64,000 nt of DNA, from the NCBI GenBank assembly GCA_047605865.1, contig JASGFC010000006.1:145-64144 (forward strand), in the 5' to 3' direction. The notes under the pieces are model-generated. The model searched no databases, was not told where the DNA came from, and was given only the letters and a program-made list of their open reading frames with translations. Position numbers and translations under genes: made by a program. Positions 14,141 to 42,767 of this stretch are shown piece by piece; positions within the stretch are counted from its first letter, which is position 1; the number at the start of each line of letters is the position of its first letter. Origin of the DNA: Micrococcaceae bacterium. Its GTDB lineage: Bacteria; Actinomycetota; Actinomycetes; Actinomycetales; Micrococcaceae.

Positions 14141-15148
14141 TTAGCTCAAGTTTTTCAACAATCTGCGTAGAGAATCGACTCTGCTTGCTAATCTTGCATC
14201 TTCTGGGCTTTTAGACAACAGGGTATCAATACCACAGTTAGTAGCTTCAGCATTGTGCAGGCACCCTTTTTCGCACTCAGTGGTGGCTTGCAGAATTTCA
14301 GGAAAGCCATTGAGAATATCATCACGATTTACATGCGCTAAACCAAAAGAACGAATACCAGGAGTATCAATAAGCCAACCACCATTTTTTAACTGTACAG
14401 CCAGAGTGGATGAAGTAGTATGTCTACCTCTTCCAGTTGTTTCGTTGACATGACCAACTGATCTATCTGAACCAGAAAGCGTGTTTGTTAGAGTTGACTT
14501 TCCTACTCCAGAATGACCTGCTAGAACCGAGACCTTTCCTTGTAAAACATCTTTGAGCTTTTTCAAAGAATCAGCATTGACTTTTCCATCGTGCATAAAG
14601 CTTTCAAAAACCTTGACCCCTAGTGGTTCATAATGTTCCCTTAGTGCAGTAGCTGTTGCTAAGTCAGTTTTAGTTACGCACAGAGAAGGTTTGATCTCAG
14701 CGGCTATGGCTGCAACTATCATGCGGTCTATTAAACCGGTTCGTGGTTCTGGTTCAGCTGCTGCAGTCACTATCAATAAATTATCAACATTTGCAACAAG
14801 AATACGTTCTTGCTTGTCGGTATCATCGCCACTACGTCGCAAGAAATTTCTGCGCTGTTCAATGCGCACAATACGAGCTAAAGAGCCTTCAGTTCCTGAA
14901 GTATCTCCAACCAATGCAACGATATCACCTGGTACGATAGCTTCTTTGCGAAGTTCTTTGGCGCGCATGGCAGTCACTTCATGTTCGTCTTTAGAGTCTG
15001 TTGAAATAACCGTGGTATACCTACCTCGATCAACTGCAATAACTAGTGCTTTAATAGCCTCTTTATGTTGTGGGCGATCCTTAGTCCGTGGCCGATTTGC
15101 TTTGGGATTAGGCCGAGCTTTGTATTCGTAGTTATCCCATTTACTCAT
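14141..15148 (-). CDS. rsgA: Ribosome small-subunit-dependent GTPase A
   Basis: Circularly permuted GTPase (VTKTDL, AGHSGVGKSTL, DTPG) and C-terminal Cys/His cluster. I place the start at ATG 15148 (MSKWDNY), overlapping the aroA stop by 8 nt, not at the ORF-track start 15235. Confidence 0.9.
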   Translation of the reverse strand: MSKWDNYEYKARPNPKANRPRTKDRPQHKEAIKALVIAVDRGRYTTVISTDSKDEHEVTAMRAKELRKEAIVPGDIVALVGDTSGTEGSLARIVRIEQRRNFLRRSGDDTDKQERILVANVDNLLIVTAAAEPEPRTGLIDRMIVAAIAAEIKPSLCVTKTDLATATALREHYEPLGVKVFESFMHDGKVNADSLKKLKDVLQGKVSVLAGHSGVGKSTLTNTLSGSDRSVGHVNETTGRGRHTTSSTLAVQLKNGGWLIDTPGIRSFGLAHVNRDDILNGFPEILQATTECEKGCLHNAEATNCGIDTLLSKSPEDARLASRVDSLRRLLKNLS

Positions 15149-16442
15149 TGTGAACCTTAGCGGAGAGCATGTTATTCCAGAGTTTAACAAAGTCAGGCAT
15201 GGTCTTTGATGTGGTCTCAATATTTTCAATTGCAATGCCTGGAATTTTTAGCCCTAAAATTGCAGCAGTAGTAGCCATACGATGATCGTGATATGTCTTA
15301 AAATTTGCGCCATGAAGTTTACTTGGCGTAAAGGCAAGAGAATCTTTTCTTTCGCTTACTTTTCCACCAAGATTGGTAAATTCAGTGTTAAGAGCTTTTA
15401 GTCGATCTGTTTCATGGCCACGAAGATGCTCAATACCAGTGATTTCACTTGGGTCGGGTGCCAACAAACATAAAGCAGCTAAATTTGGAGCAAGTTCACC
15501 AACTGCAGATAAGTCAAGAGTGCCAGGACTTTGAAGTTGATCAGGACCAGTAAAGAACATTGTTCCATCACGATATTGTGTAGTTCCACCAAATCTTTGG
15601 AGCAACTGCGGCAGCTGGAAACCTGCCTGTGTGCTGTGTTCTGGCCAATGAGGGATTTCAACAGTGCCGCCGGTAACCATTGCAGCACAGGCAAAAGGGG
15701 CAGCATTTGAAAGATCAGGTTCTACTGTTACTTCAAAAGGAGATAGAGTCTGTGGTTTAATTGTCCATCGTGCTGGTTCTTCAAAGGAAGTTTCTATACC
15801 TAAGCTTTCTAATGTTTTACAAGTCATGTTAATGTGTGGCAAGCTTGGCAAGTTTGTGCCCGTATGGATAATCTCAAGACCTTGTTGGCATCTAAAAGAA
15901 ATGAGAAGTAAAGCAGTAATGAATTGAGAGGAGGAACTAGCGTCAATTTCAATTTTTCCACCTTCAACAATGCCAGTTCCGTGTACTGTAAAAGGAAGTG
16001 AGTTGCCATTGTGCCGTGTGACTTTTACACCAAGTTTTTCAAGAGAATCTAAAGTGGTTTTCATCGGGCGTATTTGTGCTTGTTCATCACCGTCAAAAAG
16101 GGTATCTCCTTTTCTGAATGCAGCAAGAAGGGGTGCAAAACGCATCACGGTTCCAGCCAAGCCACAATCAATTTTTACAGTGTCTTCTTTAAAGCTAGGC
16201 ACGATGGTTGCAGTGCTGCCGTTCTTCTCAATAGAAGCACCTAATGAAGAAAGTGCTTGTTCCATCAACTGCCCATCACGAGCATTGAGAACGTTGTGAA
16301 TTGTGCTGGTTCCGTTAGCGAGAGATGCAAGAAATAGGTAGCGATTACTGAGAGATTTTGAGGCCGGAACTACAACAGCAGCATTGAGCTTATGTGTGGC
16401 GTGTGGAGCTTTCCACCATCGTGCTGTTAGCTGAGAAACCAT
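15141..16442 (-). CDS. aroA: 3-phosphoshikimate 1-carboxyvinyltransferase (EPSP synthase)
   Basis: PASKSLSNRYLFLASLANG motif and full-length EPSP synthase fold pattern. Confidence 0.93.
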   Translation of the reverse strand: MVSQLTARWWKAPHATHKLNAAVVVPASKSLSNRYLFLASLANGTSTIHNVLNARDGQLMEQALSSLGASIEKNGSTATIVPSFKEDTVKIDCGLAGTVMRFAPLLAAFRKGDTLFDGDEQAQIRPMKTTLDSLEKLGVKVTRHNGNSLPFTVHGTGIVEGGKIEIDASSSSQFITALLLISFRCQQGLEIIHTGTNLPSLPHINMTCKTLESLGIETSFEEPARWTIKPQTLSPFEVTVEPDLSNAAPFACAAMVTGGTVEIPHWPEHSTQAGFQLPQLLQRFGGTTQYRDGTMFFTGPDQLQSPGTLDLSAVGELAPNLAALCLLAPDPSEITGIEHLRGHETDRLKALNTEFTNLGGKVSERKDSLAFTPSKLHGANFKTYHDHRMATTAAILGLKIPGIAIENIETTSKTMPDFVKLWNNMLSAKVHNE

Positions 16443-22806: not shown

Positions 22807-23487
22807 ATGGATGAAGTAGAGAATATTATTGAAGCTGTTAACTTTACAACAGAGAAATCAGCATATAACTACCAAGCTGGAGTTGTGGTGAATGGAATTG
22901 AAACCACAGTAACACATGGTTATTGCAATATTGCCAGTAGCCAAATGGAGGGTGAAACAAGCGTTATAACGCACAATCCTCAAGGTCAAGAAATAAAAGA
23001 TTACACCCATAATTTCCTTGATGGTAAGACTGTATACCTTCAAATTCCAAGACCAGACCCTTCAGGAGAAGGCATGATTAAAGAATGGGTGTCTTTTGAA
23101 TCCCCTGGTATATCTACCTCACAAATTTGGATGTTATTTTGGCTCTACGCCACTGTTGATGCAAAAGAGATTCAACCCAATAAGTACCAAATAACTATTG
23201 ACCCTCAGGTGCTGGGAAAACAAGCACCAGCTGATAAAGCTCAAGAACTTGTCTCTGGCCTTCGTCAAAGTGCACTTGGACAGATTCCTGGCATTTTTCA
23301 TGCAGTAGTCACACTCAGTGATGAAGGTGTTATTGATTCTATGAACTTGGTTATCAATGATTACAAATCACCAGAACACGCACAAACTGGTGCTGTTGCA
23401 GAGGCTGCAGAAGTCATTTACGTTTTGCATTTAACACCAACACCGTTGCAACAGTTGAAGTTTCCTGAAGTTAACAAGGGTAATTAA
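22807..23487 (+). CDS. Hypothetical protein
   Basis: 226-aa ORF with no signal peptide. An in-frame stop 4 codons upstream (TAA 22795-22797) fixes the N-terminus. No motif I recognise. Confidence 0.5.
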   Translation: MDEVENIIEAVNFTTEKSAYNYQAGVVVNGIETTVTHGYCNIASSQMEGETSVITHNPQGQEIKDYTHNFLDGKTVYLQIPRPDPSGEGMIKEWVSFESPGISTSQIWMLFWLYATVDAKEIQPNKYQITIDPQVLGKQAPADKAQELVSGLRQSALGQIPGIFHAVVTLSDEGVIDSMNLVINDYKSPEHAQTGAVAEAAEVIYVLHLTPTPLQQLKFPEVNKGN

Positions 23488-23637: not shown

Positions 23638-23659
23638 ACTAACGAAGTAAATCCGTTAG

Positions 23660-23732
23660 TGGGCCCTGCGGGGCTCGAACCCGCGACCCACTGATTAAGA
23701 GTCAGTTGCTCTACCAACTGAGCTAAAGGCCC
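23660..23732 (-). tRNA. tRNA-Lys (anticodon CTT)
   Basis: Reverse complement folds as GGGCCTT ... ACTGA-CTCTTAA-TCAGT ... GCGGG-TTCGAGC-CCCGC ... AGGGCCC-A. Confidence 0.93.
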
Positions 23733-23787: not shown

Positions 23788-23825
23788 AGCAAAGGTATTG
23801 TTTGCCTTAGCTAACTACTTGGATT

Positions 23826-23863
23826 AAAGTGGGGTGAAGAGCTTAAGCTCTTCACCCCACTTT
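23826..23863. terminator. Perfect 38-nt palindrome downstream of the FtsX permease gene
   Basis: AAAGTGGGGTGAAGAGC-ttaa-GCTCTTCACCCCACTTT. 17-bp stem, with only a short T/A run on either side. Confidence 0.55.
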
Positions 23864-23901
23864 GGTTGGTATTTCTTGGTGTATACAGCACAGCGCTAAG
23901 A

Positions 23902-26469
23902 CTACTGCTCTGCTAAACCTTCAACAGGCGAAAGTTTAGCAGCCTTCTTACTAGGAACAATAGTTGCGATAATTCCTGCTGCTGCAGAGATGAACAATAA
24001 CAAGATTAGTTGTAGCCAAGGCAGAGCAATAGTAACTGACCAGACTTTTCCTAGGATTGCAGTTGCTCCTAGTACTCCTAGTGTTGATCCTGCTGTTATG
24101 GCAACAACAGCAGAGATTGATGCAATGAGTAGAGATTCTATACCAAGCATGGTCCTTAGCTGAGTTTTAGTTAGTCCCAAAGCTCTCAACAGCGAAGATT
24201 CTCTCGTGCGTTCCAGTACAGACAGTGAAGCTGTATTAGCAATACCAATCATGGCAATCACTACAGCAAATGCTAACAACCCAATCAGAACTGCCATCAA
24301 AGAGTTGATCATTGTATTTACTGTGAATCTCATGCTCAAACCTCCAGCAGTGTCATCAGGTGTGAGATTGAATTCTTCGACAGCACTATTTTGAACATCT
24401 TGTACTTGTTTACTGTCTAAACCATCCTTTGTCTTGAAAATAAGGACGTTTTCTGCAGCATTCTGATCAACTTTAGCAGCATCTTCAGGTGTAAGAATTA
24501 ACTTTACTGGATTTTGTCTAGTAATATCTTCTTTTACAACAGGGATAGTGATATTGCCATCTGGACCTTGGATATTTACAGTATCTTTGAGTGTACTTGC
24601 CTGCGGAACAACAAGACTGCCTTCAATAGGCTTCACGCCTGGATCTCGGGTAGCTTTTGCGTAGTCTTCAGGAGCGCTCACAAACACATCTACAGATTCT
24701 CCATCAAGTTGAAGAGGGATTCTGCTACCCCTAACTACTTGATCTACTCCTGAGATTTTACTTGCTTTATCAAGAGCCGCATCATCAAAGCTTTCATTAT
24801 TAGCAGGCTGTTTAATCATCAAATCGATAGAACAAGTTTTATCAATTTCTGCGCTCATGGTAGCTTTAGCTGTAGCAGCACCAGCCATGATAGAACTAAC
24901 CAAGGAAACACCAATCAGTAGTGCGGTTGCAGCTGATGCTGTTCTTCGAGGATTCCTTACAGTATTTAAGGCTGCAAGTTTAGCTGTGACTTTGTTGTCA
25001 GAGATTATTTTGCTTAATGACCCCAATAAAGCAGGAATTACTAAACCTGAAACCAACAACAAACCAAGGAAACTTAAAATTCCTGTAAAGATAGCAAGTG
25101 TTGGTTCATGTTGTATAGCACCAAAGACCAAACCAGCACCACCAAGTATGAAAAGTAGAACTCCAACTTTTACTTTAACTTTACCTTGTTTATTGGTAAT
25201 AGTTGCTTCTTGTAATGGATGTAGGGCTTCAATAGGGGCAAGCTGTGTTGCTTTCTTGGCTGGCATGTACGATGCGGCCATAGCAAGCCCAATTCCTATA
25301 GTGCAGGCTAGCAGTGCTTGATTTGGTTTCAAACTTGCTTCTACCCCAGCTGGCATGATGTTCGTTAGAACGGCATAAGCAACAATCCCTTTAAAAGCAA
25401 GGTAACTGAGGATAGTGCCTCCAAGGGATGCCACAAGTCCAACAATCCCAGCTTCTAGTAAAACAGATCTTTTGAGTTGTTTGGATTGTGCACCAAGACA
25501 GCGCAAGAGTGCTAGTTCTCTAGTTCGTTGAGCAAGCAACACAGTGAAGGTATTAGCAATGACCATAGCTGCAACCGCAATAGCAACTACAATGAATAAC
25601 CAAATGAATCCGATGATTCCGGCAGACCCTGATGAAAGTGCGTTAAGTTGGTCATCAACGTATTCTTTTTGAGTCATGACAGTAACATCTGAACCTACTT
25701 CATGAGTTAACTGTTCCTTTAAGTCTGTTGTGTGGGCTGGATCATCGGCTTTCACGGTGAGTAAGGACAAAGAAACTTGGGAATTTGAAGACTGTGGAGC
25801 CCATTTTTCTATCAAATCATCACTTGCAAATACTGCAGCGGCTGCCCCCATAGTATTTTGTGTTGATTGAGTAATGCCAACAACTTGAGGATGAAAAGTT
25901 TCTGTTCGTGAACCATTTGCCGAATTTGGATTATCTCCACTAGCATCGCCTTGCTGTGATTGATCTGTTGATTGACCAGCTACTATGACATCAAGATCGA
26001 TAACATCATCAATTTTTATTTTTCGTGCGTTAGCTGTTGCTTGATCTAGAGTAATCTCGTTCTGACCTTCAGGAAGACTACCTTCAATAATATTATGAGG
26101 ATTTAAATCTGCTGGTGGAGTTTCATTGATGGTAACAGGGATGTTAGTTCCGGAGAAATTACCATAAATACCACTAAACTTTTCTCCAACATCTTTAACA
26201 TTCGCAGTGTTTTTGACCTTCTCGAGGTTTGATTCTGAAATAAGCGGGATATAGTTATTATCATTTGTTTTTTCTACTGGTTTAACCACTAAATCTGCTT
26301 TTGAAACATCTTGGGCAATAGATTGCGTAACAACGCTATTCATAGTGTTGGTAAACATCATGGTTCCCTGAATAAAAGCAACTGAGATACCCAGTGCAAG
26401 TGTAATAGCAATGAGCCTTCGATAATTTGTTTTCAGTTGAGCTAGAGCTGTCATTAACATTTTAGGCAC
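23902..26469 (-). CDS. ABC transporter permease, fused double FtsX (MacB/BceB-type) domains
   Basis: 855 aa. Two 4-TM FtsX bundles, each preceded by a large extracytoplasmic region. Start overlaps the ATPase stop by 8 nt. Confidence 0.9.
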   Translation of the reverse strand: MPKMLMTALAQLKTNYRRLIAITLALGISVAFIQGTMMFTNTMNSVVTQSIAQDVSKADLVVKPVEKTNDNNYIPLISESNLEKVKNTANVKDVGEKFSGIYGNFSGTNIPVTINETPPADLNPHNIIEGSLPEGQNEITLDQATANARKIKIDDVIDLDVIVAGQSTDQSQQGDASGDNPNSANGSRTETFHPQVVGITQSTQNTMGAAAAVFASDDLIEKWAPQSSNSQVSLSLLTVKADDPAHTTDLKEQLTHEVGSDVTVMTQKEYVDDQLNALSSGSAGIIGFIWLFIVVAIAVAAMVIANTFTVLLAQRTRELALLRCLGAQSKQLKRSVLLEAGIVGLVASLGGTILSYLAFKGIVAYAVLTNIMPAGVEASLKPNQALLACTIGIGLAMAASYMPAKKATQLAPIEALHPLQEATITNKQGKVKVKVGVLLFILGGAGLVFGAIQHEPTLAIFTGILSFLGLLLVSGLVIPALLGSLSKIISDNKVTAKLAALNTVRNPRRTASAATALLIGVSLVSSIMAGAATAKATMSAEIDKTCSIDLMIKQPANNESFDDAALDKASKISGVDQVVRGSRIPLQLDGESVDVFVSAPEDYAKATRDPGVKPIEGSLVVPQASTLKDTVNIQGPDGNITIPVVKEDITRQNPVKLILTPEDAAKVDQNAAENVLIFKTKDGLDSKQVQDVQNSAVEEFNLTPDDTAGGLSMRFTVNTMINSLMAVLIGLLAFAVVIAMIGIANTASLSVLERTRESSLLRALGLTKTQLRTMLGIESLLIASISAVVAITAGSTLGVLGATAILGKVWSVTIALPWLQLILLLFISAAAGIIATIVPSKKAAKLSPVEGLAEQ

Positions 26470-27190
26470 CTAACCTTCCAAGTGCTATCAAGACATCATC
26501 GCTAGAAGGCTGTATGAGTTCCCCAGCTACTTTTCCATCTTCTAAAAGAACTACGCGATCAGCAAAGGACGCAGCGTGAGGATCGTGAGTTACCATGATG
26601 ATTGTTTGCCCCATGTGTTGACTACACCTGCGTAGAAGTTGTAGGACTTGAGTACCTACTTTCGAGTCAAGATTTCCAGTAGGCTCATCACCAAAAATGA
26701 CATCTGGTTTAGCAAGTAAAGCTCTTGCTATTGCTACACGCTGCTGCTGTCCACCTGAAAGCTCATGAGGTTTATGGTCAAGCCTGTCTTCAAGAGCTAA
26801 GATTCTAACAATTTCTTGAAACCATTCGTTTTCAGGGCTTTTACCAGCAAGTTGAAGTGGCAACAAGATGTTTTGTTCTGCTGTGAGTGTGGGAACAAGG
26901 TTAAAAGCTTGAAAAACAAAACCTACACGGTCTCGACGTAACTCGGTTAATTCTGTATCTTGCAAAGCTGTTAGCTCAGTATCGCCAATAAAAACGTGGC
27001 CTTCAGTAATGGAATCTAGCCCAGCTAAAGTATGCATAAGTGTTGATTTGCCTGAACCAGATGGGCCCATGATGGCGGTGAATTGCCCTTGAACAAAATC
27101 AACGTTTACATGGTCTAACGCTGTAACTGAAGCAGTTCCTGAATCATAGTGTTTGCTAACATTAACCGCCTGTGCTGCAATAGTTTGCAT
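26462..27190 (-). CDS. ABC transporter ATP-binding protein (MacB/LolD/BceA type)
   Basis: Walker [10 protein letters not shown], signature LSGGQQQRVAIARAL, Walker B IFGDEPTGNLD. AGGAGG SD. Confidence 0.93.
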   Translation of the reverse strand: MQTIAAQAVNVSKHYDSGTASVTALDHVNVDFVQGQFTAIMGPSGSGKSTLMHTLAGLDSITEGHVFIGDTELTALQDTELTELRRDRVGFVFQAFNLVPTLTAEQNILLPLQLAGKSPENEWFQEIVRILALEDRLDHKPHELSGGQQQRVAIARALLAKPDVIFGDEPTGNLDSKVGTQVLQLLRRCSQHMGQTIIMVTHDPHAASFADRVVLLEDGKVAGELIQPSSDDVLIALGRLGA

Positions 27191-27278
27191 CTTTCCTCCT
27201 TGGAATATCGTAGTGATACTTCAAGGTTAGGAAGAATGAGAGAAAGTTGATATTGGACTTTAGTCTAAAGTTTTTATT

Positions 27279-27980
27279 TTAAGATTCATCCTTTGTGATG
27301 ATTTGTTCATCCGCCTTTAGGGGATCAGCTTCTGTAGACTCAAGGTTACCCTGTTTAGTGTTCTTATGTGCTTTATATACCTCATATCCAATACCAATAA
27401 TAGCTAGTACCACCAACACTTCCATAAATTGAGTTACGTGACGTTTCATATATGGATTATGCGCCAGAACGTAACCTAGGGTTGGCATCCAGAGACACCA
27501 AATTGAAGAACCAAGAGTATTGAAAATTACGAACTTTTTGAAATCCATTTGACTGATGCCAGCAAAGATAGGGCCAAAGGTACGCAATAAAGGGAAGAAG
27601 CGACATAAGAGAACTGAGATACCACCGTATTTGTCAAAAAATTCGTGTGCTTTTTGGATGGAATTTTTATTAAAGATAGGCGAGTCAGGCTTATTAAAGA
27701 AAGCCGGACCAGCTCTGTTACCTACAAAAAACCCAACAATTCCACCAAGCCAGGAAGCAGCAAATGCAACAAGATAAATCTGATACAAAGGGTGGTCTAA
27801 CTTGTTTAGACCAATCATGGCCCCAGCAGTAAAGAGAATGGAATCTCCTGGAAAGACAACACCAATTGGTAACCCAGTTTCAATGAAAACAATAACCAAG
27901 ATTGCCAATAAAGCCCATGGGCCTACTGAGTGTAGTATATGGTCAGCATCAAATATATGATGACTTGAACTGATATCCAT
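27279..27980 (-). CDS. DedA-family membrane protein (paralogue 2)
   Basis: DedA/SNARE-associated pattern: IETGLPIGVVFPGDSILF, GNRAGP, FFPLLRTFGPIFAGIS. AGGAGG SD. 13 nt after the PqqD-like stop. Confidence 0.88.
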   Translation of the reverse strand: MDISSSHHIFDADHILHSVGPWALLAILVIVFIETGLPIGVVFPGDSILFTAGAMIGLNKLDHPLYQIYLVAFAASWLGGIVGFFVGNRAGPAFFNKPDSPIFNKNSIQKAHEFFDKYGGISVLLCRFFPLLRTFGPIFAGISQMDFKKFVIFNTLGSSIWCLWMPTLGYVLAHNPYMKRHVTQFMEVLVVLAIIGIGYEVYKAHKNTKQGNLESTEADPLKADEQIITKDES

Positions 27981-27993
27981 TTAGCCTCCTTTT

Positions 27994-28275
27994 TCATTTT
28001 TTCAGTAGGTACCCCTGTTTATAAAGACCTTCTACAAAGACTATAACTTGTTCAGAGATTTCTGCTTCATCAATATTGAACTTTTGGGATAACGTACGGA
28101 TAGTTTTAGCTAAACTCTCAGACTCTTCAATGAGATTCCAAATATATGCTGCTGTATCCAATAGTACAATAGGGATTTGTTGGTCAAATTTGTAGACAAC
28201 CACTCTTTCAGGAGAGCTTTCTATATAGGCAACATCGTCAGGAATGGCAAAGCGCGAATTTTTAGTAATTGCCAT
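27994..28275 (-). CDS. PqqD-family (RiPP recognition element-like) small protein
   Basis: 93 aa matching the PqqD pattern: beta-strands (VVVYKFDQQIPIVLLD) then TAAYIWNLIEE ... IRTLSQKFNIDEAEISEQVIVFVEGLYKQGYLL. Start lies 11 nt inside the 3' end of DedA-1. Confidence 0.7.
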   Translation of the reverse strand: MAITKNSRFAIPDDVAYIESSPERVVVYKFDQQIPIVLLDTAAYIWNLIEESESLAKTIRTLSQKFNIDEAEISEQVIVFVEGLYKQGYLLKK

Positions 28276-28957
28276 TTTCGTTCGATTCTTTTCTGGTTCT
28301 TCTTATTTCAAGATAAATTGCGGTTGCAGCTATAAGTGCAATACCAACCATAATCCATTCAATATTATGCCTCACCCATGGGAAACGTCCAAGATAATAC
28401 CCCGCGAGCACGATACTCGGACACCATAGTATGGCAGAAATTAAGTTGAAAAATGCAAATTTTTTATAGTTCATATTGCTGATACCAGCAAAGCTGGAAG
28501 CGAAAGTCCTTACAACAGCCACGAAACGAGCAAGAACAAGAGCACTACCTCCACGTTTTTCAAAGAAATTATGACTTTTCTTGATAAATTCTGGTTTAAT
28601 CCATCGTGACTTTGGATTATTAATAAGGCTAGGGCCAGCTTTGTTACCAAGGTAATATCCGAAGTGGCCGCCTAAGTCTGCGGCAAGAGCTAACACTAGG
28701 CAAACAAGCAGAGGGGGGTAGTGTACCTTTCCGGTAGCCATTAAAAGCCCAAGGGTAAATAAGAGCGAATCTCCTGGTAAGATAACGCCAAAAGGAACAG
28801 AAACTTCAAAGAAAATAATGAGGAAGAGCCCAAGTAATAGCCAAGGTCCCATGGCGTGGATTAAATGTCGTGGATCAAATAATTCACTAAGACCACCATG
28901 AGGAGGAGGGGCTGTTGTTGCCAAAGCAAGGCTAAAACTATGGATGAGGCTGTGCAT
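28262..28957 (-). CDS. DedA-family membrane protein (paralogue 1)
   Basis: FEVSVPFGVILPGDSLLF, GNKAGP, FVAVVRTFASSFAGIS. Diverged paralogue of 27279-27980. Confidence 0.88.
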   Translation of the reverse strand: MHSLIHSFSLALATTAPPPHGGLSELFDPRHLIHAMGPWLLLGLFLIIFFEVSVPFGVILPGDSLLFTLGLLMATGKVHYPPLLVCLVLALAADLGGHFGYYLGNKAGPSLINNPKSRWIKPEFIKKSHNFFEKRGGSALVLARFVAVVRTFASSFAGISNMNYKKFAFFNLISAILWCPSIVLAGYYLGRFPWVRHNIEWIMVGIALIAATAIYLEIRRTRKESNENGNY

Positions 28958-28980
28958 AAATTAAGTATATCCTGTCTGTG

Positions 28981-29682
28981 TTATAAATCGCTGGCATCGC
29001 CAGGTTTTGCTACCCCTAGTTCATAGGCTAAGACAGCAGCTTGGACTCTATCTCTAACACCAAGTTTATTTAAAATATGACCGACATGGGTTTTGATGGT
29101 GGCTTCTGATAAAAAGAATTCTTCAGCTAATTCAGTGTTTGATTTACCTTGCGAGATTCCAGTGAAGACTTGCATTTCTCGTGGTGAAAGAATTTCTTCA
29201 ACGTATTGCTTTTGAGCTATACGGTCTTGATTTTTATCTAGTAATGGAGAGACATGTTCAAGCAGGCGTTTAGTGGTTGAAGGTGCAATAACAGCATCTC
29301 CACTATACACAGTGCGTACTGCTTCTAATAAATCTTCTGGTGGAGCATCTTTGAGTAAGAAACCACTTGCCCCTGCTTGAATTGCAGCAAGGGAGTATTC
29401 ATCTAGGTCAAAAGTGGTTAGCATGACAACTTTAAGATGTGGGGATTGATATTTTTCTGGGTGCGAAAGCAACTCTGAGCAACATTCAATGCCGTTCATA
29501 ACAGGCATACGGATATCCATTAACACTACATCTGCTGGAATTTTTTTCAAGAGCTCTAAAGCTTCTGCACCAGTCTCAGCTTCTCCAACTACCTTTAAAT
29601 CTTCTTGAGAGTTAATAAGCATGGCAAAGCCACTACGGAGCAACGCTTGATCGTCAACGAGGACTACTCTAATTTTTTCCAT
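28981..29682 (-). CDS. Response regulator, NarL/LuxR family
   Basis: REC domain (VLVDDQ, DVVLMDIRMP) plus LuxR HTH (REMQVFTGISQGKSNTELAEEFFLSEATIKTHVGHILNKLGV). TAATG overlap with the kinase. Confidence 0.93.
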   Translation of the reverse strand: MEKIRVVLVDDQALLRSGFAMLINSQEDLKVVGEAETGAEALELLKKIPADVVLMDIRMPVMNGIECCSELLSHPEKYQSPHLKVVMLTTFDLDEYSLAAIQAGASGFLLKDAPPEDLLEAVRTVYSGDAVIAPSTTKRLLEHVSPLLDKNQDRIAQKQYVEEILSPREMQVFTGISQGKSNTELAEEFFLSEATIKTHVGHILNKLGVRDRVQAAVLAYELGVAKPGDASDL

Positions 29683-30920
29683 TAAGAAATTCCTATCTTG
29701 CTGTAGGGGATAAAGGATTCAACTTCAAAGCCTCCAGTTGCTTTTGGCCCTGCTTTGACCCAACCATCATAGAGACTGGCACGTTCTTTCATCCCACAAA
29801 TTCCCTGCTGCGAACCAAGTTGTTTGCTAAATTGATTGCCAGATCCAAGGCCATCATCAGAAATTTTCATCCAGATTCCATCCTTATTCCATGCAAGGTG
29901 TGCTGTAGCTTTTGCATCAAGGCCGGCATGTTTCAAAATATTAGTAAAGGCTTCTTGAAAGATACGATAAGCAGTCAATGAAGCTCCAGAAGAAAGCGTT
30001 CCTGACGGGCGTCCAGTTTCTTGAAAATCTATTTCTAAGCCGGAAAGTTTTGTGGTTTCAACAAGTTCAGGTAATTCAGCAAGTGAAGGAGCTGGGGTAG
30101 TTTCTATTTCTTCATCAGAACGTAAAATGCCAATAAGCTTTCGCATCTCTTGTAAAGAATGACGTCCAGTTTCTGAAATAACGCCTAAAGTATGAGCAGC
30201 AGTGTCAGGTTCTTTATCTACGATGTATCGTGCACCATCAGCTTGTGCAATGATGACAGAGAGCGAATGCGCAATGATATCGTGCATTTCACGAGCAATA
30301 CGGGAGCGTTCATCTGCTCCAGCAAGTTTACGTTCTTGCTCTTTTTCAAATTCGAGTCTTGTTGCTTTGTCTTTTAATTCTTGAAGTACGGCTCTTCTAG
30401 CGCTGACCCAATTTCCAGACACCCAAGCAAGCAAAACTATACTTGATTGGAAGATGCCCCAGAAGATTTTTTCTTCAAGAGAGGCTATATAGATATCATC
30501 AGAGATCCCATGGCTTGAAATGGCAGAATATATTGCGCCAAGCAAACCCAAAACTAGAGCTATACGACTGAATTTTTTTGTACAGTAAACAGCCATAGAG
30601 TAAATCATGACAGCTGCTGAAGCATTGGTAGGCAGCACTGGCATATTCACAAAGATATGAATGAAATTTGCCGCTGCAACCACAAGTCCCACAATGGCAG
30701 TGTGTTTTCTGCGCCAAATCATAGGTAACCATTCAAAAGAAATAACAAGAATAGCCACCAGAGCAGGTACATGGCTAGTAGGAGCACTTTCATGTGGATG
30801 TGTGAAACTAAAAATCTCAGGCAACCCAATAGTTAAGAAAAATGGCACAACCCATAAGGCATCAGTTTCAACGGGATGATTACTAGCCCATTGCTTTAAA
30901 GTCGTGTGTGGTTTGCTCAT
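29682..30920 (-). CDS. Sensor histidine kinase, HisKA_3 (LiaS/DesK-like), intramembrane-sensing type
   Basis: About 5 N-terminal TM helices with no sizeable extracytoplasmic loop. H-box REMHDIIAHSLSVI. HATPase_c (FQEAFTNILKHAG, DDGLGSG). Confidence 0.9.
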   Translation of the reverse strand: MSKPHTTLKQWASNHPVETDALWVVPFFLTIGLPEIFSFTHPHESAPTSHVPALVAILVISFEWLPMIWRRKHTAIVGLVVAAANFIHIFVNMPVLPTNASAAVMIYSMAVYCTKKFSRIALVLGLLGAIYSAISSHGISDDIYIASLEEKIFWGIFQSSIVLLAWVSGNWVSARRAVLQELKDKATRLEFEKEQERKLAGADERSRIAREMHDIIAHSLSVIIAQADGARYIVDKEPDTAAHTLGVISETGRHSLQEMRKLIGILRSDEEIETTPAPSLAELPELVETTKLSGLEIDFQETGRPSGTLSSGASLTAYRIFQEAFTNILKHAGLDAKATAHLAWNKDGIWMKISDDGLGSGNQFSKQLGSQQGICGMKERASLYDGWVKAGPKATGGFEVESFIPYSKIGIS

Positions 30921-30953: not shown

Positions 30954-30985
30954 TTCATTCTCAAGTATGATTTACGATTAGATAT

Positions 30986-31759
30986 ATGCGAATAGCCCGT
31001 TTTACCTATGAAGATACTCCCATGTTTGGAGTTGTCCATGGATCAGATGATGATCCACAAATTGCTGTTATTAAGGGTGATCCACTCTACCAAGGTATTG
31101 AAACTACAGGCCAGACAGTCATGCTCAAAGATGTACGTTTACTAGCTCCTGTCATTCCTCGTTCCAAAGTAGTAGGTGTCGGTAAGAACTATCCTGCTCA
31201 TGCTCAAGAGCAAGGTTGTGAAGCACCCAAAACACCACTAATCTTTTTCAAGCCGAATACATCAGTTATTGGCAATGGAGACCCAATCCGTTATCCAAGT
31301 TATTCGAAACAAGTTTCCTACGAAGGTGAACTTGCTATCGTGATTTCTCGTATGTGCAAAGATGTTCCCAAAGAGCGAGTCAAAGATGTAATTTTTGGTT
31401 TTACCTGCGCTAATGATCTCACTGCTCGCGATGTCATGGACTGCGATGTGCAATGGACGCGTGCTAAAGGATTTGATGGTGCTTGCCCTTTAGGACCATG
31501 GATTGAAACAGAACTTGAAGATCCTGATAACGTTGAAATTCACACTTACGTAGACGGCACCTTGGTGCAAGAAGGTAAATCTAAAGAAATGGTGCACAAT
31601 ATTGCTGAAATCGTGAGTTTTGTGACAAGTGTGTGCACTTTGTTGCCAGGTGATGTCATTATTACCGGTTCTCCAGCTGGCATTGGCAAGCTTGAATCAG
31701 GTCAAGAAGTAGAAGTTGAAATTGAAGGGATTGGGGTTCTACGTAACCCTGTGATGTAA
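30986..31759 (+). CDS. Fumarylacetoacetate hydrolase-family protein
   Basis: FAH fold motifs [17 protein letters not shown] and [12 protein letters not shown]. Sits upstream of gltX as in other actinobacteria. Confidence 0.88.
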
Positions 31760-31764
31760 AGAGT

Positions 31765-33252
31765 ATGTCAACTATGAGCAATCAAAAAGTAAGAGTTCGT
31801 TTTTGTCCATCGCCAACAGGCCTACCACACGTAGGTTTGCTTCGTACAGCGTTGTTTAACTGGGCTTATGCCCGTCACACTCAGGGCACGATGATCTTCC
31901 GTATTGAAGATACAGACCAAGCACGTGATTCTCAAGAAAGCTACGAGATGCTTCTTGATGCAATGAAATGGCTCAACATTGACTGGGACGAAGGTGTTGA
32001 AGTTGGTGGACCACATGGCCCTTATCGCCAATCTGAACGTGGTGAAAAGTATCAAGAAGTTATCAAGAAACTGCTAGATAAAGGCTACCTTTACAAGTCT
32101 TATTCAACGCCAGCTGAAGTTGAAGATCGTCACAAGGCTGCTGGTAGAAATCCTAAACTTGGATACGATAATTTTGACCGCAACTTAAGTGATGAGCAAA
32201 TAAAAAGCTTTGAAAATGAAGGGCGTGAAGCTGTTCTTCGTTTCAAAATGCCAGATGAAGATATCACGTTTAATGATCTTGTTCGTGGGGAAGTAACTTT
32301 TAAAGCTGGTTCAGTTCCAGACTATGCTGTTGTTCGCGCAAATGGTCAGCCACTTTACACACTTGTTAACCCGACTGACGATGCACTCATGGATGTCACA
32401 CATGTGCTACGTGGTGAAGACCTGCTCTCATCTACTCCACGTCAGATAGCTTTGCATCGTGCTTTTGTTGATGTAGGAATCTCAGAGCAAGTACCAGAAT
32501 TTGGCCACTTGCCTTATGTCATGGGACAGGGCAATAAAAAGCTCTCGAAGCGCGATCCAGAATCGAACTTGTTTAATTATCGTGATCGTGGTTTCATCCC
32601 TGAAGGATTGTTGAACTACTTATCTTTATTAGGCTGGTCACTTAGCCCTGATGAAGATATTTTCACGATGGATCAAATGGTTAAAGCTTTTGATATCAAG
32701 GATGTTGTAGCAAATCCAGCACGATTTGATGTGAAGAAAGCTGAAGCAATTAATGCTACGCATTTGAGGATGCTGGAACCAGAAGATTATCGTAATCGTC
32801 TTATTCCTTACTTACAAAAAGGTGGAGTTTTAGGAAAAAACGTTTCAGATGAAGATCTTAAAAAACTTGACGCTGCTGTTCCTCTTGTGCAAGAACGCAT
32901 GAACCTATTGGATGAAGCGCCAGATATGCTTGGTTTCTTATTTGCCAACGATGAGGATATTAAAATTCAAGATGATGCTATGAAAGGCATGCCTGAAAAC
33001 TTAGCTGAAGTTCTTGATGCTGGTACCAAAGCACTTGAAAATGTTGATAAGTGGAATACTGATAACATCCAGCAAGCGCTGCGCAGCGCCCTTATCGAAG
33101 ATATGGGATTAAAGCCTCGGCTAGCCTTTGGACCTTTCCGTACTGCGCTAAGTGGGCGCAGAATTTCACCACCATTGTTTGAATCAATGGAAATTCTTGG
33201 TAAAGACAGCACTCTGAACCGTATTCAGCAGTTTAAGGAAGCGAAAGCATAA
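31765..33252 (+). CDS. gltX: Glutamate--tRNA ligase
   Basis: Class I HIGH variant [10 protein letters not shown] and KMSKS variant KLSKR. Full-length GluRS. Confidence 0.95.
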
Positions 33253-41429: not shown

Positions 41430-42767
41430 TTGCCGAACGAAAGTGAAACTATAGTGTTAATTCTTCATGGTGGGAAGCCACTTCAAGGAAAAATCACAGT
41501 CCGAGGTGCTAAAAATTTAGTTCCAAAAGCTATGGTTGCTTCACTTCTTGGAGATAAGCCTTCAACTCTGAGAAATGTACCTGAAATTAAGGACGTTGAT
41601 GTTGTAACTTCATTATTAAATCTTCATGGTGTTGATATCACAAGAGATAAAGAAGCAGGCACTTTAATAATGGATCCAAGGAATGTTGAGGTTGCTGCTC
41701 AAAAAGATATCCAAGTACATGCCGGTGACTCAAGAATCCCTATTTTAATGTGTGGACCCTTGGTTCATGCTTTGGGAGAAGCTTTTATCCCAGATCTTGG
41801 CGGTTGTAAAATTGGGGATCGTCCCATTGACTACCACTTGGATGTATTGCGTAAATTTGGAGCTAAAGTAGAAAAGAGTAATCTCGGTATTCATATTTCA
41901 GCTCCCGATGGACTTCATGGAGCGAAAGTTAAGCTTCCGTACCCATCAGTTGGAGCTACTGAGCAGGTTTTGCTCAGTGCTACTAAAGCTCAGGGTATTA
42001 CTGAACTTTCAGGCGCTGCTACTGAGCCTGAGATTATGGATTTGATTCTCATTCTTCAGAAAATGGGTGCACTCATATCTGTTTCTACTGACCGAACCAT
42101 CCACATTGAAGGTGTTGAACGGTTGCACGGGTACAACCACTTTGCAATGCCAGATAGAAATGAAACAACTTCTTGGGCATCTGCAGCTTTGGCTACAAAT
42201 GGTGATATTGAAATTGAAGGAGCAAAGCAACTTGATTTGATGGCTTTCCTCAATGCTTATCGTAAAATTGGTGGTGGTTTTGATGTCACGGAAAATGGCA
42301 TGCGTTTTTTCAGAGAGCATCAAGATCTCAATTCTATTGTCCTTGAGACAGACGTCCACCCTGGATTCATGACAGATTGGCAACAGCCTTTAGTCGTTGC
42401 TCTAACTCAAGCAAATGGTGTTTCTATTGTCCATGAAACAGTCTACGAGAATCGTTTTGGTTTTACTCAAGCTTTGCGTGAAATGGGAGCCAATATTCAG
42501 GTTTATCGTGAGTGTCTTGGTGGAACGCCTTGTCGCTTTGGGCAAAGAAACTTCCATCATTCAGCGGTTATTTCTGGGCCAACTCCTCTTCATGGAAAAG
42601 ATATTATTATTCCTGATTTGCGTGGCGGATTCTCGCACATTATTGCTGCCTTAACTGCTGAAGGTGAATCAAGAATTAGCGGTATTAAAATCATTAAACG
42701 TGGATATGAACGTTTCCCTGAAAAGCTTAAAGCTCTCGGCGTAGATTACAAGGTTACCAAGGATTAA
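41430..42767 (+). CDS. murA: UDP-N-acetylglucosamine 1-carboxyvinyltransferase
   Basis: ITVRGAKN and active-site GGCKIGDRPIDYHL. Start uncertain (TTG 41430 or GTG 41454). Confidence 0.93.
   Translation: MPNESETIVLILHGGKPLQGKITVRGAKNLVPKAMVASLLGDKPSTLRNVPEIKDVDVVTSLLNLHGVDITRDKEAGTLIMDPRNVEVAAQKDIQVHAGDSRIPILMCGPLVHALGEAFIPDLGGCKIGDRPIDYHLDVLRKFGAKVEKSNLGIHISAPDGLHGAKVKLPYPSVGATEQVLLSATKAQGITELSGAATEPEIMDLILILQKMGALISVSTDRTIHIEGVERLHGYNHFAMPDRNETTSWASAALATNGDIEIEGAKQLDLMAFLNAYRKIGGGFDVTENGMRFFREHQDLNSIVLETDVHPGFMTDWQQPLVVALTQANGVSIVHETVYENRFGFTQALREMGANIQVYRECLGGTPCRFGQRNFHHSAVISGPTPLHGKDIIIPDLRGGFSHIIAALTAEGESRISGIKIIKRGYERFPEKLKALGVDYKVTKD

Follow-up and report, generated by a model that had tools for sequence, protein, structure and literature searches.

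A 64-kb stretch of DNA (the window) from contig JASGFC010000006.1, part of a metagenome-assembled genome (MAG), carries on its minus strand seven tightly packed genes for a two-component system (TCS), two DedA-family membrane proteins (DedA-1 and DedA-2), a PqqD-like protein with the fold of a RiPP recognition element (RRE; RiPP, ribosomally synthesized peptide with post-translational modifications) and an ATP-binding cassette (ABC) transporter. Four of these genes, encoding the sensor kinase, the response regulator, the RRE-fold protein and DedA-2, constitute a conserved unit at a fixed site between FAH-gltX and tRNA-Lys(CTT), as two sister loci hold just these four. Combining a TCS with a MacB-type ABC transporter is nothing unusual among Gram-positive bacteria; the new element is an RRE-fold protein under selection beside a DedA gene, and the functional steps described for it below are steps that we infer. 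It is proposed, with moderate confidence, that the genes form a chromosomal and autoregulated membrane- or envelope-stress operon, which is organized around the RRE-DedA pair and has been enlarged in the window genome by a second DedA and a MacB-type exporter.

A conserved unit at a fixed chromosomal site

A scan of 185,579 species genomes returned two sister loci, L005 and L006. They belong to the MAGs JASGDC01 and JASGEI01, both of the Micrococcaceae and with a GC content of 37-38 %. The order in both loci is tRNA-Gln(CTG), gltX and FAH followed, divergently, by the kinase gene, the regulator gene, a 130-nt spacer, the PqqD-like gene and a single DedA gene, and then by tRNA-Lys(CTT), which is inverted in L005. 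The same chromosomal site is occupied in the window (tRNA-Gln-gltX-FAH on one side, tRNA-Lys-CTT on the other). Identity to the corresponding window protein was 79-82 % for GltX, 67-69 % for FAH, 72 % for the regulator, 46-48 % for the kinase and 41-44 % for the PqqD-like protein, while the single DedA of the sisters was 55 % identical to DedA-2 and 34-37 % identical to DedA-1. Synonymous sites were saturated between the window and the sisters. DedA-1 and the double-FtsX ABC transporter were absent from the syntenic site in both L005 and L006.

The first-pass annotation, which was made from the window alone, had described the seven genes as one system with a DedA-PqqD-DedA core and had pointed to a bifidobacterial source. 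Its layout was confirmed; a mechanical listing of open reading frames (ORFs) placed all seven on the minus strand and reproduced every earlier coordinate, and the junctions and domains agreed with a reading of the sequence and with Pfam. The contig itself belongs to an NCBI MAG labelled Micrococcaceae bacterium, with a GC content of ~41 %. The conserved part of the supposed core is the PqqD-DedA2 pair, and DedA-1, at 38 % identity to DedA-2, is a DedA of the canonical actinobacterial kind. The expected co-occurrence in related genomes was thus found for TCS-PqqD-DedA2 in the two sisters, and failed for DedA-1 and the ABC genes, so that the seven-gene set is not a conserved system.

The tRNA-proximal end of the locus is a variable region. 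L005 carries another ABC pair ~1.5 kb beyond, on the opposite strand, which comprises a single-FtsX permease of 419 aa and an ATPase 41 % identical to that of the window, and the site appears open to both gain and loss of FtsX-type transporters. No att-like direct repeats flanking the ABC insertion beside tRNA-Lys were found. The difference in DedA-1 and ABC content may represent a gain in the window or a loss from the reduced sister genomes, and the two deep lineages fit either. The region after DedA is also rearranged between the closely related species that carry L005 (L005:5973-9119) and L006 (L006:11074-12258).

In L005 (sister MAG 1M022) the kinase gene is interrupted by two in-frame stops and a frameshift, and the regulator gene is frameshifted (L005:2620-4617), while PqqD-DedA is intact. 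The PqqD-DedA pair is therefore either not strictly dependent on the TCS or the decay is recent. The pseudogenes suggest ongoing gene decay in this low-GC (38 %) Micrococcaceae lineage. The GC values, ~41 % for the window and 37-38 % for the sister loci, are low for a Micrococcaceae label, and, taken together with the pseudogenes, they hint at a reduced and possibly host-associated lineage. No publication citing the MAG project code JMF-2106-05 was found.

The RRE-fold protein and its pairing with DedA-2

The PqqD-like protein matched Pfam PqqD at 41.2 bits (cutoff 23.4, E 2e-10). The AlphaFold2 model (predicted local distance difference test score 93.9) consists of three strands and then three helices, and its best Foldseek match was the leader-bound lasso B1 protein TbiB1 (PDB 5V1V; TM-score 0.81-0.88, root-mean-square deviation (rmsd) 1.2-1.4 Å). 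TbiB1 and 6JX3 together spanned TM-scores of 0.79-0.88 and rmsd values of 1.2-2.0 Å, with PqqD and cyclodehydratase RRE domains ranking next. The likeness to lasso B1 and PqqD RREs lies in this three-strand, three-helix winged-helix fold; the sequence identity to lasso B1 is just 18-19 %, and the protein barely registers against PDB sequences. The best NCBIfam model was lasso_PqqD_Bac, at 31.9 bits against a cutoff of 80. The model for PqqD of pyrroloquinoline quinone biosynthesis (TIGR03859) gave 23.9 bits against a cutoff of 46, no pqq genes were found nearby, and scores for the other NCBIfam chaperone models also fell short of their cutoffs.

Between L005 and L006 the dN/dS of the PqqD-like gene was 0.21, compared with 0.066 for DedA-2 and 0.05-0.06 for FAH and GltX; the PqqD-like ORF is a real gene under purifying selection. 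A DNA-binding winged-helix role is the alternative that the authors of RRE-Finder give for RRE-like false positives (PMC7470986). Such a regulator is unlikely here, since the protein is acidic (isoelectric point 4.4-4.7).

A word-indexed search of 5.8 billion proteins returned the query itself as the sole match. An exhaustive HMMER search of 1.84 billion representative proteins produced 13 matches at E<=1e-3, one of which was close (43 % identity, from another Micrococcaceae MAG), and a profile search with the protein produced 10. No homologues were found in a scan of plasmid records, and a metagenome scan for PqqD-DedA loci yielded three distant PqqD loci, none of which had a DedA gene.

The genomic contexts of six distant relatives (27-32 % identity) were read. 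A PF14907 gene was adjacent in four of the six, glycosyltransferase genes were present in two and Transglut_core3 in one; neither a DedA gene nor a TCS stood beside the RRE gene in any of them. The Nocardioides locus L007 added nothing on this point. As the nearest non-orthologous relatives are mostly without RiPP enzymes and lie beside PF14907, several in glycan loci, they provide weak context for a non-RiPP role of the RRE protein. Relatives beside PF14907 (NTP_transf_5) genes are located at L008:6001-8840, L009:5578-6770, L010:660-1855 and L019:4688-6084, and no lasso cyclase was found on these four contigs; the relative in L008 is surrounded by cell-envelope glycan genes (GT4, GT2, acyltransferase and GDSL). 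The PF14907-adjacent loci may represent a second non-classical context for RRE-fold proteins.

RiPP machinery (a cyclase, B2 protease or radical-SAM enzyme) was not detected in the flanks of the cluster, in sampled large ORFs of the 64-kb window or in the sister loci, and the cluster and sister loci contained no credible ORF with a YxxPxL leader-like sequence. A 21-codon ORF in the regulator-PqqD spacer of L006 was considered as a leader candidate and rejected, as it is not conserved in L005. The cluster RRE thus differs from lasso B1 and PqqD proteins in having neither partner enzymes nor a precursor peptide and in being coupled to a DedA gene.

Both DedA proteins matched VTT_dom (DedA-1 75.7 bits, DedA-2 69.8 bits, cutoff 33.9). 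Residues E34, D46, R127 and R133 do not vary among the four DedA sequences, and their 12- and 6-residue spacing matches that of the essential E39, D51, R130 and R136 of Escherichia coli YqjA. The domain and the conserved E/D/R/R residues are shared with E. coli YqjA/YghB and with UptA of Bacillus subtilis and Staphylococcus aureus, but neither protein reaches the cutoff of its best NCBIfam model, PRK10847 (E. coli DedA-type, 130-147 where 236 is needed), and both remain far short of the UptA cutoffs. No solved structure related to the window DedAs was found among PDB sequences. The best homologues of DedA-1 (41-47 % identity) are solitary DedA genes, and the four genomic contexts read were all housekeeping sites, two between fba and a phosphoribosyltransferase gene and one among purine-biosynthesis genes. 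Generic actinobacterial DedAs were closer to DedA-1 (mean 43 %) than to DedA-2 (36 %), in a set picked as the best hits of DedA-1 and hence biased in its direction.

In the window the ATG of the PqqD-like gene lies 14 nt within the 3' end of DedA-1, and 13 nt containing the Shine-Dalgarno sequence AAGGAGG separate the gene from DedA-2. In the sisters DedA follows immediately after PqqD, with stop and start 1 nt apart or with an 8-nt overlap. Judged from these sequences, PqqD and DedA2 are translationally coupled at their junction in each of the three genomes. No paper naming both PqqD and DedA was found in the literature searched, nor one combining HisKA_3, FtsX and Actinobacteria; the composition of the cluster had been taken as previously undescribed, and within that literature this stands. 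The RRE-DedA pairing is undescribed and is confined so far to three uncultured low-GC Micrococcaceae MAGs.

Proteins of the DedA family are ubiquitous and have been connected with resistance to cationic peptides, to colistin and to bacitracin, and we know of no described protein partner for any of them. The presence of an RRE domain is treated as nearly diagnostic of a RiPP gene cluster. We favour a role for the RRE protein as a cytoplasmic peptide-binding accessory of DedA-2. A more specific form of this, that the RRE fold was recruited outside RiPP biosynthesis as a dedicated cytoplasmic partner of DedA and would, for example, gate DedA-2 or help it assemble by binding a regulatory peptide or an extended stretch of DedA-2 itself, is offered as a speculation with a low probability. 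If true, a selected and translationally coupled RRE-DedA pair under a membrane-stress TCS would be a counter-example to the genome-mining rule that an RRE marks a RiPP cluster, and the RRE protein would be the first candidate accessory protein for a DedA transporter. Partnership with DedA-2 would also open a way to study the regulation of DedA proteins. The scope of these statements is the three MAGs, and each functional step in them is conditional.

The sensor genes, the putative transcription unit and the transporter

The kinase contains DUF7134, HisKA_3 and HATPase_c, and the regulator Response_reg and GerE; Pfam assignments of all seven products exceed the gathering scores. Hydropathy of the kinase showed four clear transmembrane (TM) segments and one weaker between residues 21 and 172. 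The loops are of ~20 aa or shorter and the kinase therefore has no extracytoplasmic sensor domain, which agrees with the original description of an ~5-TM HisKA_3 kinase. DesK chains were the best solved relatives of the catalytic core (E 4e-17), the kinase gave 34.6 bits against the Strep_LiaS model NF052531 (cutoff 450) and the regulator fell below the cutoffs of NarL, MadR and similar NCBIfam models. On sequence grounds the kinase is assigned to the DesK/LiaS class and the regulator to the NarL/LiaR class.

The 65-nt intergenic region between FAH and the kinase gene is strongly conserved despite the saturation of synonymous sites. It contains a palindrome that is perfect in L005 and L006 (TCATACTTAGGTATGA; TCATAC-TTAG-GTATGA) and has one mismatch in the window (TCATAC-TTGA-GAATGA). 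The palindrome fits the LiaR consensus T-N4-C-N4-G-N4-A (PMC4482077), and it is a reasonable candidate for an autoregulatory operator. A short motif common to the intergenic gaps, ATACTT(D)(R)G, was discarded because it was not enriched (8 matches against 3.6 expected, with the additional matches in the cluster lying inside genes).

The locations of the genes and associated features are listed in Table 1. The kinase and regulator genes share TAATG with a 1-nt overlap, and gaps of 23 nt and 88 nt separate the regulator from DedA-1 and DedA-2 from the ATPase. The permease may start at a GTG at 26469, giving the 8-nt overlap with the ATPase that was first reported, or at an equally good ATG at 26460, 1 nt past the ATPase stop, in which case there is none. 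The sole strong terminator-like structure is a hairpin 36 nt past the permease stop, ahead of tRNA-Lys, and no terminator-like site was found in any intergenic gap of the cluster upstream of it. Given the co-orientation, the tight spacing and the lack of an intergenic terminator before this hairpin, it is plausible from the sequence that the seven genes form one transcription unit under the TCS in the window genome.

Table 1. Coordinates of the cluster genes and neighbouring features in the window.
Feature	Coordinates	Strand	Description
Sensor histidine kinase	29682..30920	-	412 aa; ~5-TM N-terminal bundle (DUF7134), then HisKA_3 and HATPase_c
Response regulator	28981..29682	-	233 aa; NarL/LuxR-class, REC and GerE helix-turn-helix
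DedA-1	28262..28957	-	231 aa; canonical actinobacterial-type DedA/VTT membrane protein
PqqD-like / RRE-fold protein	27994..28275	-	93 aa, acidic, orphan
DedA-2	27279..27980	-	233 aa; DedA with conserved pairing to the RRE protein
Spacer DedA-2/ATPase	27191..27278	-	88 nt, structured
ABC ATPase	26462..27190	-	242 aa; MacB/LolD/FtsE-type family
Fused double-FtsX permease	23902..26469	-	855 aa; 10 predicted TM helices, two extracytoplasmic domains
Candidate regulator operator	30955..30970	.	Palindrome TCATAC-N4-G(A/T)ATGA in the 65-nt FAH/kinase divergent intergenic region
Hairpin, likely bidirectional terminator	23823..23866	.	Perfect 19+19 bp (38 nt, 23826-23863)
tRNA-Lys(CTT)	23659..23732	-	Downstream synteny anchor
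Rv2993c-like FAH hydrolase and glutamyl-tRNA synthetase (gltX)	30986..33252	+	Divergent; upstream synteny anchor; Pfam

The ATPase matched ABC_tran at 116.6 bits, and its best NCBIfam models (DarD, DevA, LolD and MacB) were all below cutoff. The permease matched MacB_PCD at 37.4 bits (cutoff 27) and FtsX at 99.6 bits over two stretches. An FtsX TM domain follows a MacB-like periplasmic core domain and the cognate ATPase is adjacent, which places the transporter with the MacB-type (type VII) ABC systems, while the equivalog cutoffs for MacB, LolCDE and FtsEX were all missed widely (for MacB, 62 against 966). The extracytoplasmic domains span residues ~41-275 and ~535-715, in two MacB-like halves joined by a TM hairpin. 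Matches of the permease among PDB sequences were YtrF, Spr0695-type (pneumococcal MacB-like), MacB, LolC and LolF; BceB was not matched at E<=1e-3.

The fold of the 88-nt spacer ahead of the ATPase has two elements, a short AU hairpin and a stem in which the ATPase Shine-Dalgarno sequence (AGGAGGAA) pairs with the upstream UUCUUCCU. The minimum free energy was -20 kcal/mol (z = -3.7), and none of 200 shuffled sequences was as stable. As the stem pairs the ribosome-binding site of the ATPase and no T-tract terminator is present in the spacer, these data suggest that transcription reads through while translation of the transporter is controlled separately, and the Shine-Dalgarno-sequestering stem may be the control element.

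Related systems and competing explanations

The LiaFSR and VraSR systems of Firmicutes and EsrISR of Corynebacterium glutamicum resemble the cluster in combining a HisKA_3 kinase without an extracytoplasmic sensor domain with a NarL/LuxR-class regulator and in having membrane-protein outputs, and autoregulation is likely in the cluster also, the candidate operator fitting the LiaR consensus. The cluster differs from LiaFSR and EsrISR in that no LiaF/EsrI-type accessory was found by Pfam among its products, the flanks being FAH/gltX and tRNA, and from all three in that its kinase has ~5 TM segments (DUF7134) in place of 2 TM segments and a HAMP domain. To our knowledge, DedA and RRE genes are not among the known outputs of Lia regulons. 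DesK-DesR of B. subtilis provides the best structural match for the kinase core and has ~five TM segments with short loops and a NarL-class partner, and by analogy the output would act on membrane lipids in both systems. The likeness to DesK covers the catalytic core, whereas the TM region is of the DUF7134 family of actinobacteria, and the outputs of the cluster are DedA, RRE and ABC genes rather than a desaturase. EsrISR is a LiaFSR-like envelope-stress system in Actinobacteria which is induced by bacitracin and vancomycin (PMC6975037).

BceRS-BceAB likewise places a TCS beside an ABC transporter with an FtsX-domain, 10-TM permease. However, the Bce regulator is of the OmpR family (Trans_reg_C) while that of the cluster has a GerE/LuxR output domain, BceS has 2 TM segments and HisKA in contrast to ~5 and HisKA_3, BceB carries one large extracellular domain, placed between TM7 and TM8, where the cluster permease has two, and the cluster transporter is missing from the sister loci. 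MacB, YtrEF and LolCDE (type VII transporters) share the MacB_PCD and FtsX permease and an ATPase of the MacB/LolD/FtsE group; the cluster transporter differs in the fusion of two MacB-like halves in one 855-aa chain and in having no MacA-like adaptor gene. By analogy, the best-supported reading is that the cluster would work like the LiaSR/EsrSR or DesKR systems; it falls outside the Bce family.

In the operon proposed here, the genes would have been assembled in layers, with DedA-1 placed in the regulator-RRE spacer of the four-gene core and an ABC transporter of the mechanotransmission MacB/YtrF type placed on the tRNA side of DedA-2. The kinase would sense a perturbed bilayer or lipid-carrier cycle through its TM bundle, and the phosphorylated regulator would bind the TCATAC-N4-GTATGA palindrome upstream of the kinase gene and raise transcription of the whole unit. 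The DedA proteins would then restore proton-motive-force-dependent translocation of lipids or carrier lipids, the ABC transporter would clear the membrane's outer face of an amphipathic agent and the RRE protein would serve DedA-2 in the cytoplasm rather than RiPP biosynthesis. Several observations weigh against this. The pair is found in just two independent lineages (three genomes), and in L005 it persists without working sensor genes. The palindrome occurs once per locus, and neither PqqD in the sisters nor the ABC genes of the window have a second copy ahead of them; the palindrome is nearer to the FAH start than to the kinase start and could equally serve the FAH gene, and the LiaR consensus is degenerate, with four fixed bases only. 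Co-transcription is read from the layout of the genes, and the presumed contact between the RRE protein and DedA-2 from their pairing. Furthermore, both DedAs scored 42-70 bits against UptA models with cutoffs of 250-300, so that their description as duplicated carrier-lipid recyclers in the first-pass annotation is reduced to a family-level possibility.

The same annotation had read the seven genes as one integrated Bce/Lia-type module for detoxification of antimicrobial peptides, in which the transporter, the carrier-lipid recyclers and the RRE adaptor had co-evolved. Such a system would account for seven co-oriented, tightly packed genes with no terminator-like site before the post-permease hairpin and for the presence together of an intramembrane-sensing kinase, an FtsX-type ABC transporter and DedAs. 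It is nevertheless improbable, as DedA-1 and the ABC pair are absent at the sister loci, the regulator is NarL-class and the kinase HisKA_3/DesK-like, the permease resembles YtrF, Spr0695, MacB and LolC with two extracytoplasmic domains and not BceB, the cluster has no LiaF-like gene and the UptA cutoffs are missed. The opposite extreme is that genome compaction has made accidental neighbours of independent units, namely the TCS, DedA-1, the PqqD-DedA-2 pair and the ABC transporter, at a variable site by tRNA-Lys. The content 3' of DedA does differ in all three genomes, L005 having the inverted tRNA-Lys and its own single-FtsX ABC pair, and the decay of the TCS beside an intact PqqD-DedA in L005, the 130-nt regulator-PqqD spacer of the sisters and the structured leader that the ABC genes possess in their 88-nt spacer are all in keeping with independent units. 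We consider this unlikely, although it is to be taken seriously; the HK-RR-PqqD-DedA2 adjacency (HK, histidine kinase; RR, response regulator) has been kept despite saturated synonymous sites between the window and the sisters, the regulator-PqqD spacer of L006 has no terminator-like site and a fold no more stable than that of shuffled sequence, and the gaps in the window are 23 nt, -14 nt and 13 nt.

A further possibility is that the locus is the remnant or immunity cassette of a lasso-type RiPP cluster that has lost its cyclase, protease and precursor, or that the RRE protein serves a RiPP pathway elsewhere in the genome. The closest structures are lasso B1 chaperones, lasso_PqqD_Bac is the best NCBIfam model, Transglut_core3 (B2-like) genes lie on either side of one distant relative (P0133), and ABC transporters and regulators are frequent in RiPP clusters (PMC7470986). 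This origin is very unlikely, given that the cyclase, B2 protease, radical-SAM enzyme and leader-like ORF are missing from the genes sampled in the window and from the sister loci alike, that the lasso_PqqD_Bac score is far below its cutoff and the exporter is MacB-type, and that the RRE gene is under purifying selection and coupled to DedA rather than to the ABC genes, which the sisters lack at the locus. The stress operon around the RRE-DedA pair is the reading that we retain.

The flanks of the cluster are housekeeping in character, with FAH/gltX divergent upstream and tRNA, AhpC and an ABC-2 exporter downstream, and the large ORFs sampled over the 64 kb are likewise housekeeping genes. The GC content is ~41 % throughout the window and there is no compositional island. 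Adjoining tRNA-Lys, a 226-aa ORF at 22807-23487 (+) matched no Pfam family at E<=1e-4 and is without a counterpart in the sister loci. Two EPSP_synthase-family genes are located elsewhere in the window, at 15141-16442 and 41430-42767, and presumably encode MurA and AroA.

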